DNA of 64,000 bases from Eledone cirrhosa (lineage: Eukaryota): the NCBI GenBank assembly GCA_964016885.1, contig OZ024744.1, positions 45,880,001 to 45,944,000 on the forward strand. The letters run 5' to 3'. The stretch's first letter is position 1. Each line of letters begins with the position of its first letter. The translations under genes and the position numbers were made by a program. Positions 48,894 through 64,000 of the stretch are shown piece by piece. The notes under the pieces are model-generated. The model saw only the letters and a program-made list of their open reading frames with translations, was not told the DNA's origin and ran no database searches.

Positions 48894-48954
48894 ATTTTTT
48901 TTTCTTATTAAAGCATATAGATGTAAGTGGAGTTACTTAAATGAAAATATAAGT

Positions 48955-48970
48955 GGCCCTTAAAAGGGCC
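48955..48970 (-). other. Histone-3'-end-type stem-loop motif (GGCCCT-TTTA-AGGGCC, then ACTT)
   Basis: The reverse complement matches the metazoan histone stem-loop consensus GGYYYU-UUUH-ARRRCC; it lies where Sat-A ends. Confidence 0.6.
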
Positions 48971-49081
48971 AAATTAGAAAACGAATTTAAGTTAATTAGA
49001 AAACAAGTCATGGTTATCAATAAATTGGATTTAATCATTTATATTTTCATAATCATGGTTATCAATGTAGAAAACAAGTCA

Positions 49082-49345
49082 TTTTCACCAACAGTGGAAT
49101 TACTTCTGACAGCTAATACCATGAACTTAAATTAATTTTCACTAACAGTGGAGTTACTTCTGACAGCTTATACCATGAACTTAAATTAATCTTCACCAAC
49201 AGTGGAGTTACTTCTGACAGCTAATACCATGAACTTAAATGAATTTTCACCAACAGTGGAATTACTTCTGACAGCTAATACCCTGAACTTCAATTAATTT
49301 TCACCAACAGTGGAGTTACTTCTGACTGCTAATACCATGAACTAT
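49082..49345 (+). repeat. Satellite B: 54-bp tandem repeat, 5 units
   Basis: Unit TTTTCACCAACAGTGGAGTTACTTCTGACAGCTAATACCATGAACTTAAATTAA starts at 49082, 49136, 49190, 49244 and 49298. Confidence 0.95.
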
Positions 49346-49789
49346 ATTTTCATCGTCATGGGTATCAATGTAGAAAACAAGTCATTTTTACCAACCCTGG
49401 AATTAACTTAAAGGAAAATATAGTTTGCCCTTAAAAGGGCCATATTAGAAAACAAATTTATGGTTATCAAATATTTTTCACCAACCCTTTATGAAGAAAT
49501 GTTTAGAAAACAAATTTTGTTCACCAACCTGATTCAAAAGTATGGATACAGTCGACATGGAGACAAGGGACAGTCACCATGGAGATTGATGGTATCTGCT
49601 GTAGTAGCGGTAGCGATGGAAAGATTGTGATGGTTAATTCCATTAACAATTTGGCCCTTTTAAGGGCCACCTATATTTTCATTTAAGTTAACTCCACTGT
49701 TGGTGAAAGTGACTTGTTTTCTACATTGATAACCATGACTATGAAAATATAGTTCATGGTATTAGCTGTCAGATGTAACTCCACTGTTG
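49305..49789. repeat. 142-bp inverted repeats (49305-49446 and 49648-49789) around a ~200-bp spacer; foldback core
   Basis: The reverse complement of 49648-49789 aligns without gaps to 49305-49446 with about 13 mismatches by eye. Confidence 0.92.
49653..49671 (+). other. Histone-3'-end-type stem-loop motif GGCCCTTTTAAGGGCC-ACC
   Basis: 6-bp stem with a GG base and U-A closing pair, UUUA loop and ACC 3' flank, as in replication-dependent histone mRNAs; no histone ORF upstream. Confidence 0.65.
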
Positions 49790-49979
49790 TTTAATAAAAG
49801 AAAAAAGAAAAAAACACGTGATACTTTCATTTAAGTAACTCCCCTTACAACTATATGCTTTAATAAAAAAAAAAATAATTTCATTTAAGTAACTCCACTT
49901 ACATCTATATGCTCAAATAAAAAAAAAATAAAAACAAACGCGTGAAAAAAAAAAAATTCCTTTAAGTAATTCCACTTAC
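49790..49979 (-). repeat. About three inverted Sat-A monomers (short right arm of the foldback)
   Basis: TTTCATTTAAGTAACTCCACTTACATCTATATGC with poly-A linkers is the reverse complement of the Sat-A core. Confidence 0.95.
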
Positions 49980-50145
49980 GCGTGGTAGTAATACGGAAAT
50001 AAACGATGTTTTGCTTTCATCGGCTGCTTCGACAGACAGCTTTATTCTTTATTTTTATTATTATATATGTAATATATATGTCTCCATACCTTTGATATTG
50101 TGTCTCACTATATCACACACCCTTTACCCAGGCTTTCAAATGTTC

Positions 50146-51535
50146 ATGTATGTATGTGTGTATATGCATATATATGTATGTATGTATGTGTGTATATGTA
50201 TATTTGTGTACGTCGCCATATATGCATGTGTGTATATGTATATTCGTGTACGTCGCCATATATGTATGTATGTTTGTGTGTATATGTATATTTGTGTACG
50301 TCGCCATAAATGTATGTATGTTTGTGTGTATATGTATATTTGTGTACCTCGCCATATATGCATGTATGTGTGTATGTATATGTATATTTGTGTACGTCGC
50401 CATATATGCATGTATGTATGTGTGTATATGTATATTTGTGTACGTCGCCATATATCTATGCGTGTATATGTATATTTGTTTACGTCGCCATATATGTATG
50501 TATGTGTGTATGTATATGTATATTTGTGTACGTCGCCATATATGTATGTATGTTTGTGTGTATATGTATATTTGTGTACGTCGCCATATATGCATGTATG
50601 TGTTTATGTATATGTATATTTGTGTACGTCGCCATATATGTATGTATGTGTGTATATGTATATTTGTGTACCTCGCCATATATGTATGTATGTGTGTATA
50701 TGTATATTTGTGTACGTCGCCATAGATGTATGTATGTATGTATGTATATGTATATTTGTGTACGTCGCCATATATGTATGTATGTGTGTATATGTATATT
50801 TGTGTACTTCGCCATATATGTATGTATGTGTGTATATGTATATTTGTGTACGTCGCCACATATGCATGTATGTATGTGTGTATATGTATATTTGTGTACG
50901 TCGCCATATATGTATGTCTGTATGTGTGTATATGTATATTTGTGTACGTCCTCTTCTATGTATGTCTGTATGTGTGTATATGTTTATTTGTGTACGTCGC
51001 CATGTATGTATGTATGTATGTATGTATGTATGTATGTATGTATGCATGTATGTATATGTATATTTGTGTACGTTGCCATATATGTATGTGTATATTTGTG
51101 TAGGTCGCCATATATATATGTATGTGTGTATATGTATAGTTGTGTACGTCGCCTTCTATGTATGTCTGTATGTGTGTATATCTTTATTTGTGTACGTCGC
51201 CATGTATGTATGTATGTATGTATGTATGTATGTATGTATGTATATTTGTGTACGTCGCCATATATGTATGTATGTGTTTATATGTATACTTGTGTACGTC
51301 GCCATATATGTATGTTTGTGTGTATATGTATATTTGTGTACGTCGCCATATATGTATGTATGTTTGTGTGTATATGTATATTTGTGTACGTCGCCTTATA
51401 TGCATGTATGTATGTGTGTGTATGTATATTTGTGTACGTCGCCATATATGTATGTATGTGTGTATATGTATATTTGTGAACGTCAACATATATATATATG
51501 TATGTATGTGTATATATGTATGTATGTGTGTATAT
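50146..51535 (+). repeat. Satellite C: ATTTGTGTACGTCGCCA core in a (TATG)/(TG) microsatellite matrix, ~35-50 bp units
   Basis: TATATGTATATTTGTGTACGTCGCCATATATGTATG recurs throughout. Confidence 0.95.
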
Positions 51536-52390
51536 GTGGAGTTACTTAAATGACATCTTTTTATTTTTTGCACGAGTTTTATAGTCTTTTATTACAGCAT
51601 TTAGATGTAAGTGGAGTTACTTAAATTAAATTTTTTTTTTCACGCGTTTTTTATTTTTTTTATTTTTTATTAAAGCATATAGATGGAAGTGGAGTTACTT
51701 TTGGCAGAATCGGTAGAGGGTCGGACGCCATGCTTTGCAGCATAGTGTTACGGCTCCTTCTGATCTGAGTTCAAATCCCGCCGTGGTTAATTTTGCCTTT
51801 CATCCTGACCGGGTTGATAAAATGAAGTACCAGTAATCTACTGGTTAATATCTGGCCTTCTGCCAATGGTAGAAACAATTTTTTTTTTCTTATTAAAGCA
51901 TATAGATGTAAGTGGAGTTATTTAAATGAATTTTTTTTATTTTCTTTCACGAGTTTTTTAGTTTTTTATTTTTTATTTTTTTTTTATTAAAGTATACAGA
52001 TGTAAGAGGAGTTACTTAAATGAATTTTTTTTTACTTTTTTTCACCAGTTTTTAATTTTTTATTTAAGCATGTAGATGTAAGTGGAGTTACTTAAATGAA
52101 ATTATTATTTTTTTTTTTATTAAAGCATATAGATGTAAGTGGAGTTACTTTTGGCAGAATCGGTAGAGGGTCGGATGCCATGCTTTGCAGCATAGAGTTA
52201 CGGCTCCTTCTGATCTGAGTTCAAAACCCGCCGAATTCAATTTGCCTTTCATCCTTACGGGGTCGATACAATAAAGTACCAATCATCTACTGAGTAATTG
52301 CTGGCCTGGTGCCAATAGTAGAAACAATTATTTTTTTTTCTTATTAAAGCATATAGATGTAAGTGGAGTTACTTAAATAAAAATATAGGT

Positions 52391-52406
52391 GGCCCTTAAA
52401 AGGGCC
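52391..52406 (-). other. Histone-3'-end-type stem-loop motif (minus strand GGCCCTTTTAAGGGCC-ACC)
   Basis: The plus strand reads GGTGGCCCTTAAAAGGGCC, a full consensus match on the minus strand. Confidence 0.65.
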
Positions 52407-52518
52407 AAATTAGAAAACAAATTTAAGTTAATTAGAAAACAAGTCATGGTTATCAAATCAATTGGATTTAATCATTTATATTTTCATAATCATGGTTATC
52501 AATGTAGAAAACAAGTCA

Positions 52519-53160
52519 TTTTCACCAACAGTGGAATTACTTCTGACAGCTAATACCATGAACTTAAATTAATTTTCACTAACAGTGGAGTTACTTCTGA
52601 CAGCTAATACCATGAACTTAAATGAATTTTCACCAACAGTGGAGTTACTTCTGACAGCTAATACCATGAACTTAAATTAATTTTCACCAACAGTGGAGTT
52701 ACTTCTGACAGCTAATACCATGAACTTCAATTAATTTTCACCAACAGTAGAATTACTTCTGACAGCTAATACCATGAACTTAAATGAATTTTCACCAACA
52801 GTGGAGTTACTTCTGACAGCTAATACCATGAACTTAAATTAATTTTCACTAACAGTGGAGTTACTTTTGACAGCTAATACCATGAACTCAAATGAATTTT
52901 CACCAACAGTGGAGTTAATCCTGACAGCTAATACCATGAACTTCAATTAATTTTCACCAACAGTGGAGTTACTTCTGACAGCTAATACCATGAACTTAAA
53001 TGAATTTTCACCAACAGTGGAATTACTTCTGACAGCTAATACACTGAACTTCAATTAATTTTCACCAACAGTGGAATTACTTCTGACAGCTAATACCATG
53101 AACTTAAATGAATTTTCACCAACAGTGGAGTTACTTCTGACAGCTAATACCATGAACTAT
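52519..53160 (+). repeat. Satellite B: 54-bp tandem repeat, 12 units
   Basis: The same unit as 49082-49345 recurs with strict 54-bp periodicity from 52519 to 53113. Confidence 0.95.
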
Positions 53161-53848
53161 ATTTTCATTGTCATGTGTATCAATGTAGAAAACAAGTCAT
53201 TTTTACCAACCCTGGAATTAACTTAAAGGAAAATATAGGTTGCCCTTAAAAGGGCCATATTAGAAAACAAATTTATGGTTATCAAATTTTTTTCACCAAC
53301 CCTTTATAAAGAAATGTTTAGAAAACAAATTTTGTTCACCAACCTTATTCAAAAGTATGGATACAGTCCACATGGAGACAAGAGACAGTCACCATGGAGA
53401 TTGATGGTATCTGCTGTAGTAGCGGTAGCGATGGAAAGATTGTGATGGTTAATTCCATTAACAATTTGGCCCTTTTAAGGGCCACCTATATTTTCATTTA
53501 AGTTAACTCCACTGTTGGTGAAAATGACTTGTTTTCTACATTGATAACCATGACTATGAAAATATAGTTCATGGTATTAGCTGTCAGATGTAACTCCACT
53601 GTTGTTTAATAAAAGAAAAAAGAAAAAAAACACGTGATACTTTCATTTAAGTAACTCCCCTGACATCTATATGCTTTAATAAAAAAAAATAATAATTTCA
53701 TTTAAGTAACTCCACTTACATCTATATGCTTTAATAAAAAAAATAATAATTTCATTTAAGTAACTCCACTTACATCTATATGCTCAAATAAAAAAAAATA
53801 AAAACAAACGCGTGAAAAAAAAAAATTCATTTAAGTAACTCCACTTAC
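53120..53848. repeat. Second foldback core: inverted repeats (~53120-53261 and ~53463-53604) plus about four inverted Sat-A monomers
   Basis: Paralog of 49305-49979; plus-strand stem-loop at 53468-53486. Confidence 0.9.
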
Positions 53849-54012
53849 GCGTGGTAGTAATACGGAAATAAACGGTTTTGCTTTCATCGGCTGCTTCGAC
53901 AGACAGCTTTATTCTTTATTTTTATTATTATATATGTAATATATATGTCTCCATACCTTTGATATTGTGTCTCACTATATCACACACCCTTTACCCAAGC
54001 TTTCAAATGTTC

Positions 54013-56865: not shown

Positions 56866-59448
56866 TCTCTTTCTCTTAATTTCGAGTATATTTTTTTGAC
56901 CGGCCACCTTCCTGGTGGCAAGGTTGTAAAAGAAAAGAAATTGTCATCCCTTGAATCGCAAGAATGTTTTGCAAATTTTGAAGGTGCCAGCTATCGCAGC
57001 CATTTGTAGACTATGAATTAGGGAGCTGCGCTTTTTGTCCGCAAATCCAAGTTCAGTCATAACTTGGTCCAAGCGGGTTGGTATATAACCCGTAGCACCA
57101 ATAATGATGGGTATGAAGCTAAAGGTGTATCTTGGATACTGGATTTGTAAACTCCTCATCAATGGTCCGTAGATGTCCTCCTTCTCCTGTATTTTTCTGA
57201 CAACGTTTACATCAAGTGGTCAGCTCATCTCCACAACAGAACACGTTTTCAATGTGTGGTCCCAAACTACAATATCAGGCCGGTTGTGCTTTAATTTGGT
57301 GGCAGTTTTTATTTTCAGGTTCCACCAGTATTCCTTAGTGCCATCTGTCTCAATATATTCTTCCTCGTTTGTTGTTAATTTTGTTTTCCGAAGTGCGTTC
57401 CAGATAGTTCTAGCTATCCCATCGTGTCTCATGGGGAGGTAGTAGCGAGATGACATTCTTTCGCAGCTGGCAACAATGTGGCTTACATCCTCGATCTTTG
57501 TTTTACATAGCCTACATTTATTGTCAGCTGCTGGCCCTCCTCTTTTGTGCAGCAGATATTTGGTAGGGAGTTCTTGTTCCTGTATTGCATAGAGATATCC
57601 CTCAAGGTGTGATGTCATAAACTTGTCGGAACTCCATGCCAGGCTTTTTGAGTGGTTTATCCCCTCTATGGTCTGTGTTTTACGCCTCAAGTATCCATGC
57701 ACAACTTTCTCTGTAAATTGGTCAATTTTTTTTTCTTGTTTGAACATTGAATAGGATCTTCCGATTTCTCTGGGTGAGAGATTTATATCAGGCTTTATTC
57801 CATATCTCTCCTCCAGATCAGTCGCTATTCTAATGATATTTCTTTTTTTCATGCTCATAAACCAGAGCAAGATGGTCACCAACCTTATTCCTCTGTTGAA
57901 GGTGTTGCTTCAGTGTTACTATCCGGGTCTCATATGTTGTTAATATTGATTTTAGACCCCGGCCACCATCCTTGCGTGAGAAGTATAGCCTATCCACATC
58001 ACCATTGATGTTAAAGTTCCCAGTAACACTGAGAAGTTTTCGAGTTCTAACATCCATCTCACTTAGTTCTTGCAATGACCAGTTCAGTAGGCCAAATGTT
58101 GGCGTTAGAATTGGCACAGCATAGGTATTGTGGGCAATGTATTTGTTGTATGCTGACAGTTCTGATGACCATATTTTTTTTACTCTTCTGAGGTATTCAG
58201 TTCTGGTTCTCTCCTTATTTATGGGTCCATCATATCTGACATTCTCATCCTGTCCAAGATATCTGTAGTTGTCACCTGACTGCAGAGGTTGTATTGTCAG
58301 GCCGTTCATCTCTAGATTTCTAGAGGAGGGCACAGCTCTTCCACGTTTTACTGCCAAATATGCACACTTGGACTCACCAAATTTCATTTTGATGTCGGTT
58401 GAAAATTGTGTAATGAGGTCCAATTGTTTCTTGATGTCATTGATATTTGGCCCATACAACTTCAGGTCATCAACAAAGAAAAGATGGGAGATACTTCTGG
58501 GCCCACTTCTTTGTCCACCTTGTTTCCTGAGTAGGTAAGATAGTGGATTCAGTGAGAGAACGAAGAGTAGTACTGACAAGCTATCACCCTGAAAGATGCC
58601 CTTCTGGTAATGTATCCTATCAGTCTTAACCTGCTCCTTCTCACCTCTAAGGATCAAATTGGTGTACCAGTTCTTGGTCAGGCGTTCAACAGCAGCTACT
58701 AATGGTTGTGGGACTTTAGCTAACTGTAAAGCCTTAATAATCCACCCATGAGGTACACTATCAAATGCTTTTTGATAGTCCAGCCACACGACAGTCATGT
58801 TTCTGCGATTCTTTGTTGTTTTTTCCTGACTCATTTTGTTAGTTAGTAGGTGATCTATGCAACCCCACACCTCCCTCTTTCCACCAGCTTGCTCAGGTGT
58901 TATGATGTTGTTGGTAGCACAGTGATCCTGTAAGAACAGGTTAAGGCACCCAGTATATAATTTATACATGATGTTTTGGCAGGCAATTGGGCGGTAATTT
59001 TTAGCAAGGGTGGTTTGGCTATTTTTGGGAATTAGGAGAGTAGTGGCAGTTGATAACCATCTGGGCAGTTCTTGTGTGCCCTTAATGGTTTCTGTAAACA
59101 GCCGTATGAGATCTTGCCGATAGAAAGTGAAATTCTTCAACCAGTATCCTGTAATGAGGTCTGGGCCTGGCGATTTCCCATTCGACATTTTCTGTAGAGC
59201 TGTTTCCAGTATTGACTCATCTATGTCATATTGTTTTGTCTGGACATGTTGGCAGTAGTCCTGTTCCAGTTGTTTTAGCCAATTAGCTTGTCTGTTGAAT
59301 CCGTCATCCGTTTCCCATACATATCTCCAGTAGTTCTCAACCTGTTCTTTTGAAGGGGTGTCGTTTACAGGGATTGAGCTTTTGCCACCGAAGCTGCGAT
59401 AAACTGATTTAGGATCTCTGGCAAACAATCTATTTAGCACTTGTCGTT
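56866..59448 (-). mobile_element. 5'-truncated non-LTR retrotransposon with a restriction-like endonuclease (R4/Dong-like clade)
   Basis: Unique 2.58-kb block bounded by (TATG)n on both sides, encoding RT followed by CCHC and PD-(D/E)xK-type motifs; short 3' UTR at 56866-56943. Confidence 0.9.
56944..59448 (-). pseudogene. Disrupted RT-RLE polyprotein ORF (reverse transcriptase, CCHC zinc knuckle, restriction-like endonuclease)
   Basis: RT motifs YRPIAC, WLDYQKAFDSVPH, GIFQGDSLS, HLFFVDDLKLY and YRYLG; CRLC-x8-H-x4-C followed by RHD; RPDIVVWD...VVEMS*PLD. There is a frameshift in an A run at ~57845 and an in-frame TGA at 57220-57222. No native start codon is present. Confidence 0.92.

Positions 59449-63159: not shown

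Positions 63160-64000
<841 letters not shown>

Follow-up and report, generated by a model that had tools for sequence, protein, structure and literature searches.

Probable capture of a histone H4 3' end by a Merlin transposon of Eledone cirrhosa, and the likely repeated adoption of such ends by DNA transposons

A stretch of 64,000 nt from the 3.0 Gb genome of Eledone cirrhosa (assembly GCA_964016885.1, contig OZ024744.1, positions 45,880,001–45,944,000, forward strand; hereafter "the window") contains six copies of a hairpin of the type that ends replication-dependent histone mRNAs, lying in broken copies of a Merlin DNA transposon. This transposon almost certainly captured the 3' end of a host histone H4 gene, as the match between the two indicates, and longer members of the family carry the hairpin behind their transposase gene. 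Similar hairpins occupy the same position in other Merlin families and in Helitrons, and it is likely that DNA transposons have taken up the histone 3' end on repeated occasions, which would tie transposase mRNA to S phase. In its full form, the proposal is that two unrelated superfamilies (Merlin and Helitron) have independently placed a histone 3' end behind an enzyme gene, the resulting mRNAs being bound to stem-loop binding protein (SLBP), non-polyadenylated and either confined to S phase or stored maternally, and that the family in the window is a capture seen in progress, the genome having kept the donor gene, the intermediates and the ancestors that lacked the hairpin; this joint reading has about an even chance of being correct. 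Use of the histone 3' end in at least one of the families has an even to slightly better chance, and its use as the transposase mRNA end in the window's own Merlin family is a tentative proposition, a little short of even.

The six hairpins lie at the positions and on the strands given for them in a preliminary description of this DNA (Table 1), and none is expected by chance (0.00 in 100 shuffles). Like a histone 3' end, they have a stem of 6 bp, a loop of 4 nt, a G in second position and a following ACC, which stands behind three of the four exact copies, the fourth having ACT. Their equation with the SLBP-bound histone stem-loop was borne out in part by the Infernal search that had been suggested as a check: both plus-strand copies reached 37 bits with the Rfam Histone3 model, against a gathering score of 34, but the other four did not pass. 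The hairpins were said to lack a histone gene, and six-frame translations of the spacers indeed hold no histone coding remnant. They face outward from the 211-nt spacer, as had been noted, because the hairpin sits in inverted repeats; the divergent transcripts proposed to start in the spacer and end at them are unlikely, since the window copies have neither a transposase frame nor a complete element end. The two cassettes, which are 92–96% alike and each hold three copies of one captured sequence, stem from one tandem duplication, so the six hairpins are not independent. By their structure, the cassettes are two dead, internally deleted element copies, which are not expected to move or to make transposase, since they keep a 55–67-nt relic of the transposase gene and right arms about 17 nt short; no element terminus was found anywhere in the window. 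The hairpins are likely functionless in these broken copies.

Host histone genes were collected with Pfam (67 core-histone matches in the genome), and 35 distinct 3' ends were compared. In one element copy (L046), 62 of 64 letters of the hairpin and the 47 nt behind it are the same as at the 3' end of an intact H4 gene (L036), with a loop of TTTC in the gene and TTTA in the element. This gene is the best match among the 35 ends, and the next five are H4 genes with diverged versions of the flank. Transfer from host to element, rather than the reverse, is indicated by these diverged versions in the H4 paralogs and by the donor locus, which matches no element end. In view of this match, the hairpins in the window are not a chance palindrome, and that they are just a DNA palindrome, a possibility raised earlier, is very improbable. 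The element's downstream flank is the H4 gene's own. The absence of a purine-rich U7 downstream element had been held against the hairpins, an objection that lapses because none of the 35 host ends has one; 33 of them have WWGT at +12 to +24, probably the U7 site, and a second, GATATG-like motif is often found near +40 (L033–L044, L129–L158). These host downstream motifs suggest an unusual U7 RNA in this lineage. A gene for SLBP is present in the host. The other caveat, a 5' flank of AATTT rather than adenines, holds: AATTT precedes the exact hairpins and AATAT the mismatched ones, and the A found at –2 or –3 in 35/35 host ends (at –3 in 34) is absent from the window copies.

Searching the genome with the 19-nt hairpin-plus-ACC sequence gave 608 exact copies, and the reversed control none. 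The hairpins of the first 30 loci are situated within long inverted repeats sharing an end that starts with GG, and the exact 25-nt terminus occurs 385 times genome-wide (control, 0). Longer relatives with an open reading frame in place of the spacer, which had been proposed as something to look for, do exist outside the window and encode a transposase. Its single frame of 300 codons has no intron, as is the case for histone genes, and its product matches Pfam DDE_Tnp_IS1595 (PF12762; E 5e-18 and 2e-19), has D149, D210 and E247 in the alignment, and finds its nearest named homologs in Octopus (72–86% identical); XP_014790296.1 and XP_029648038.1 are among the Octopus homologs. Target duplications of 8 bp are exact in L003/L004, L050, L070, L056 and four of six giant units (Table 1); in small elements they are exact in 7/27, differ by one mismatch in 4/27 and are unmatched in 16/27. 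Merlin is defined by an IS1595-type transposase, terminal inverted repeats starting with GG, and target duplications of 8–9 bp, and such elements are abundant in Octopus bimaculoides (PMC8101967, in excerpt); by these defining features, the element is a Merlin DNA transposon. The earlier suggestion of a mobile element or a virus-derived relic was, thus, right in its first half only. An origin as orphan histone pseudogenes or as a virus relic would account for a hairpin and flank that are histone-derived, but the spacers hold a transposase relic and no histone coding remnant, and the viral contigs have no relative of the Merlin alignment or of the Helitron helicase and no exact hairpin; this origin is extremely improbable and is refuted by the element ends, target duplications and transposase.

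The placement of the hairpin in more complete elements was established from 30 loci picked by transposase, three pairs of which overlap or are identical. A sense hairpin lies behind the transposase stop in 27 of them (at 97–137 nt in 21), and 27 have a second, antisense-facing hairpin upstream of the transposase. Divergent histone gene pairs were considered as an explanation for the outward pairs spaced 1.2 kb apart, an idea that was rejected as the pairs enclose transposases. The hairpin behind the L046 transposase scores 34.0 bits with Rfam Histone3, the H4 donor 42.1 and a real host H3 gene 27.7, the last being under the threshold. According to the proposed mechanism, SLBP would bind the hairpin behind the transposase gene, and U7-type cleavage would end the intronless mRNA without poly(A); transposase production would then fall in S phase, the time at which cut-and-paste moves raise the copy number, with perhaps some storage in eggs. 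Cut-and-paste elements are described as gaining copies by moving during replication (PMC5371812, in excerpt), and oocytes as storing histone mRNAs (PMC12803260, in excerpt). That intact elements use SLBP and U7 in this way is plausible, and the independent Merlin and Helitron cases lend it support.

A metagenome set of Merlins comprised 46 loci in 26 families, 37 loci having enough DNA behind the gene. Three of the 46 loci (L229, L260 and L262; 2/26 families) have a hairpin, always sense and 85–117 nt behind the estimated stop; shuffled sequence gave 0 strict and 0.5 relaxed matches per 220 kb, and the 300-nt zone behind the gene makes up 5% of the DNA. Adenines precede these stems, and no AATAAA lies ahead of them in the two loci read. 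The two families are 49% and 26–39% identical to that of the window. No H3 or H4 remnant was found in the 46 loci (H2A, H2B and H1 lay outside that search), and no inverted repeats were found in the three hairpin-bearing loci.

A pattern requiring the host-type 5' flank gave 84 matches in the genome (control, 0), of which 50 were read, namely the first 30 and the 20 further ones lying outside histone clusters: 13 were histone genes or relics, 36 came from three Helitron families, which, being picked by this pattern, carry 5' adenines by construction, and one was unclear. In 29 of the 36 Helitron matches, the helicase match ends 205–294 nt upstream on the same strand, 25 of these 29 having no AATAAA or ATTAAA in between. 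When 70 Helitron loci were picked by helicase instead, 18 (2/12 families) had a sense hairpin behind the gene, with none antisense and none in the coding sequence. The Helitron assignment rests on the helicase (Pif1-type, PF21530, E 2e-14) and the 3' parts of the elements, with a 3' terminal hairpin and CTAG in families A, B, C and F8; the histone-type hairpin is distinct from this terminal hairpin, which is located 190–500 nt further on. Four Helitron families with helicases 55–77% identical share, in their 3' regions, only a block of 28–59 nt around the histone-type hairpin and, in some pairs, the terminal hairpin; the lone sharing of this block is, as comparative evidence, a mark of selection. 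No host donor was found for the Helitron hairpins, the best matches being 23–29 nt long. The Helitron carriers are loci L277–L326 and L327–L359, with hairpins in tandem repeats in L341 and L358. A 5' block containing GAAC is common to the hairpin Helitrons and Merlin L229, and resembles C. elegans histone flanks. The match between L260 (2433–2466) and L262 (2042–2057) stops one base behind the hairpin, as would a copy of a hairpin-ended RNA, and a second, fully paired variant directly follows the first in L260.

The history of the capture can be followed in a midpoint-rooted tree of 44 transposase copies (those under 500 nt were left out). All hairpin-bearing copies fall into one clade of 37/44 rows (100/100), and its hairpin-less rows are truncated or rearranged where read (L051, L209, L216, L223). 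The seven rows outside the clade have no hairpin, and in five of them the arm repeat that has received the H4 piece in younger copies is still uninterrupted. In five copies, the first 126 transposase codons are fused to the H4 flank, with about 500 nt of flank in the two read out, and both arms of a 600-nt subfamily contain the hairpin preceded by its native 5' flank. Judging from the hairpin-less sister elements and these capture intermediates, the capture is recent. An older element would have copied several hundred bases of DNA downstream of H4 in gap repair; the H4 piece would then have entered the inverted repeats and been trimmed to the hairpin plus 47 nt, one arm later expanding into the satellite that fills most of the window, the core of which is the same H4 flank as the element's.

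Several observations count against use of the hairpin as an mRNA end. The AATTT 5' flank derives from the element and lacks the A at –3/–2 of all host ends, and human SLBP reportedly needs two 5' adenines for full affinity (PMC10388802, in excerpt); such adenines are found in the small-element subfamily and in L229, L260 and L262. The stem of the element is predicted to be one pair longer, AATAAA lies about 65 nt ahead of the hairpin in most intact copies, and the element's stop-to-hairpin distance is longer than in all 35 host ends (19–40 nt in 34, 114 nt in one). Rfam scores fall below 34 for L229 (28.7 bits), L262 (31.9), L260 (23.5) and Helitrons C (33.6), B (28.8) and F1b (28.6), and neither L277 nor L358 attained E 0.001 with Histone3. 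No U7 RNA gene scored above threshold among just 65 candidates (best Rfam U7 score 29.7 bits against 34), and the 5' part of the best candidate does not pair with host histone flanks. No hairpin was found in 24/26 metagenome Merlin families, in the genome's other Merlin families (19 loci) or in 10/12 Helitron families. Nor was significant excess conservation of the hairpin detected in 20 of the 30 loci (two were dropped for want of a stop anchor, and eight for insertions, truncation, duplication or lack of a hairpin), with 4 changes in 320 cells against about 7 expected from adjacent GC and AT rates, and no covariation was seen in the stems, all six pairs being invariant in 14 hand-picked rows. 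Transposition with intact duplications has occurred in older elements without a hairpin and, in four giant units, with far ends that lack it, and gene-less elements also retain the hairpin.

Much of this is what would be expected of a neutral passenger, acquired by accidental H4 capture and spread by inverted-repeat homogenisation and satellite growth, with the transposase mRNA polyadenylated as usual. The loss of the 5' adenines, the upstream AATAAA, the unremarkable conservation, the mobility of ends without a hairpin, the hairpins in gene-less elements and the capture intermediates lacking one, in some cases, all favour it, and capture might perhaps have been helped by frequent landing near histone genes and by a GC hairpin favouring template switches. 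Against it, the transposase-bearing line kept, from several hundred captured bases, just the hairpin and both host-conserved downstream motifs, and in unrelated families of Merlins and Helitrons the hairpin is placed likewise and has canonical flanks. The passenger explanation is a substantial possibility, although short of probable, and it could hold for the window's family while the Helitron cases are functional. The outward-facing pairs, which are common, and the antisense-facing hairpin upstream of the transposase could instead reflect containment at the RNA level, with the hairpins cutting transcripts before they reach the inverted repeats or neighbouring sequence, thereby limiting double-stranded RNA and silencing, or acting as an SLBP sponge; this is improbable, as the symmetry is explained by inverted repeats alone, and metagenome Merlins and Helitrons have the sense-strand hairpin behind the gene only. 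Still less probable is a palindrome acting as DNA, as a binding site for transposase or Helitron Rep or as a cruciform, and merely resembling the histone element. The invariant stems without compensatory change, and the block's presence in tandem repeats in some Helitrons, would fit such a role, but the window family's hairpin is derived from an H4 gene and is missing from ends that have transposed, loops are always pyrimidine-rich on the sense strand, flanks follow those of histone genes, and one Merlin hairpin (L229) agrees in every letter with the C. elegans histone hairpin (PMC1924863, in excerpt).

The element resembles the histone mRNA 3' end (RF00032; SLBP, U7 snRNP) in its 16-nt hairpin, ACC and host-derived downstream flank, but differs in lying behind a transposase with no histone frame, in its 5' flank without adenines and in its longer 3' untranslated region. 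It shares with Merlin/IS1016 elements (IS1595 family) the transposase, GG inverted repeats, 8-bp duplications and internal tandem repeats able to seed satellites (PMC8101967, in excerpt), but here the inverted repeats contain a captured histone 3' end and some copies form composite units of 22–31 kb; the words histone, stem-loop, hairpin and polyadenyl do not occur in that article. Adoption of the histone 3' end would serve the same purpose as the replication-coupled transposition of Ac/Ds and IS10, S-phase movement to gain copies, but those elements sense hemimethylated DNA, whereas the Merlin link would run through mRNA 3' processing and decay (PMC5371812, in excerpt). Searches of the open-access literature (subscription papers and Repbase being mostly outside their scope) found nothing linking transposons to the histone stem-loop and terminal inverted repeats, and nothing on Helitrons together with histones and stem-loop binding protein. 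Pack-MULEs and Helitrons capture gene fragments, copying host DNA into a DNA transposon, and the sea-urchin TU foldback element, found in a histone orphon, combines long inverted repeats and tandem repeats in the vicinity of histone DNA. The Merlin piece differs from both in being a regulatory RNA element behind an autonomous element's own gene, and in recurring in unrelated families. In the open-access literature searched, no account was found of a histone 3' end in Merlin arms or of its recurrence across Merlin and Helitron families.

By one description, no metazoan mRNAs except those of histones are known to lack polyadenylation (PMC10388802, in excerpt). If the proposal is true, transposon transcripts would be the first class of non-histone metazoan mRNAs in the histone pathway, and the rule of a single exception to polyadenylation would fall; selfish elements would gain, through RNA, a way to be expressed in S phase and in eggs, and poly(A)-selected transcriptomes would have missed such transcripts. 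Confirmation from RNA would make this regulatory strategy one of a new kind, with a new coupling of transposition to replication. Even if the hairpin is neutral, a satellite of about 58 kb has been traced, via a transposon arm, to a 60-nt piece of one histone gene, and most Rfam Histone3 matches in genomes like this one are marks of transposons (608 exact copies of the element type, compared with 67 Pfam core-histone matches).

Table 1. Features of the window (positions in the window) and giant units of the Merlin family (contig:positions)
Feature	Position	Strand	Remarks
Exact hairpin	48955-48970	-	pattern match
Exact hairpin	49653-49668	+	pattern match
Exact hairpin	52391-52406	-	pattern match
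Exact hairpin	53468-53483	+	pattern match
One-mismatch hairpin	49426-49441	-	pattern match; second hairpin copy of first cassette, final C to A
One-mismatch hairpin	53241-53256	-	pattern match; second cassette
Satellite array: captured H4 downstream flank and element's T-rich arm	1-48908	-	broken up by a dispersed repeat of ~200 nt, 30 copies
Captured H4 3' end, hairpin and downstream flank	48909-48970	-	63 nt, 93.7% to L036 1733-1795; corresponds to hairpin behind transposase stop in intact elements (maps to L046 2460-2605)
Five 54-nt tandem repeats of element's arm	49106-49342	+
Spacer from internal deletion: inner arm and transposase-start relic	49442-49652		relic on minus strand, 49585-49651, 67 nt, 83.6% to L046 transposase start
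Hairpin and 30 nt of H4 flank	49653-49698	+	97.8% over 46 nt; Rfam Histone3 37 bits; corresponds to upstream, antisense-facing hairpin of intact elements
Element right arm, ~17 nt short of terminus	49699-50041	+	match to L013 starts at element position 18
TATG-rich 44-48-nt minisatellite	50137-51516	+	outside the element; duplicated along with cassette
Second cassette: captured H4 3' end	52345-52406	-	includes hairpin 52391-52406
Second cassette: twelve 54-nt repeats	52543-53157	+
Second cassette: transposase start relic	53400-53454	-
Second cassette: hairpin and H4 flank	53468-53513	+	Rfam Histone3 37 bits
Second cassette: right arm without terminus	53514-53908	+
Giant unit	C1:5550636-5578734
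Giant unit	C1:155773155-155798795
Giant unit	C1:304002453-304030870
Giant unit	C2:76985481-77016260
Giant unit	C2:143994836-144016985
Giant unit	C1:392475292-392498874

The AT-rich satellite starts about 9 kb before the window (contig C28, about 45,871,000), and no element end was found at this start, near L208:1003. Its units match the host H4 locus L036 at 1752–1795, and its 38-nt core occurs in 484 copies before position 48955 (up to 4 edits), with 87 more upstream (locus L208). The array also shows higher-order duplications, of about 9.35 kb and 2.2 kb. The dispersed repeat of about 200 nt, which we take to be an octopus SINE, has been amplified within the satellite (window 1–48800) and is denser after 39,000.

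Other features of the Merlin family were observed in passing. The giant composite units (L189–L207) are bounded by the family's ends and have in common a cargo of LINE fragments and simple repeats that runs to kilobases, and many further end pairs at this spacing occur among the 385 termini. A virus within these units was considered and rejected, the cargo frames seen by eye being LINE, LTR-retrotransposon and Tc1-like fragments and simple repeats. The 600-nt subfamily (L099–L128) lies mostly at C18:4.9–12.6 Mb with repeated flanks, a clustering that points to the spread of many copies by segmental duplication rather than by jumping. Head-to-head transposase gene pairs within one end pair are seen in L003/L004, L050, L057/L061 and L089, and also in another Merlin family. 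Four separate insertions (L039/L149, L043/L132, L137, L153) lie in 119 kb of histone-gene loci, compared with two ends in 414 kb of control loci; the family may prefer histone clusters, on small numbers spotted after the fact.

Elsewhere in the window, a LINE-type reverse transcriptase fragment, named by eye and cut by the minisatellite, lies at 56870–59440 on the minus strand within an open frame of 743 codons, and a long TA/CA microsatellite at 63160–64000 is the source of all the top inverted-repeat matches in the window.

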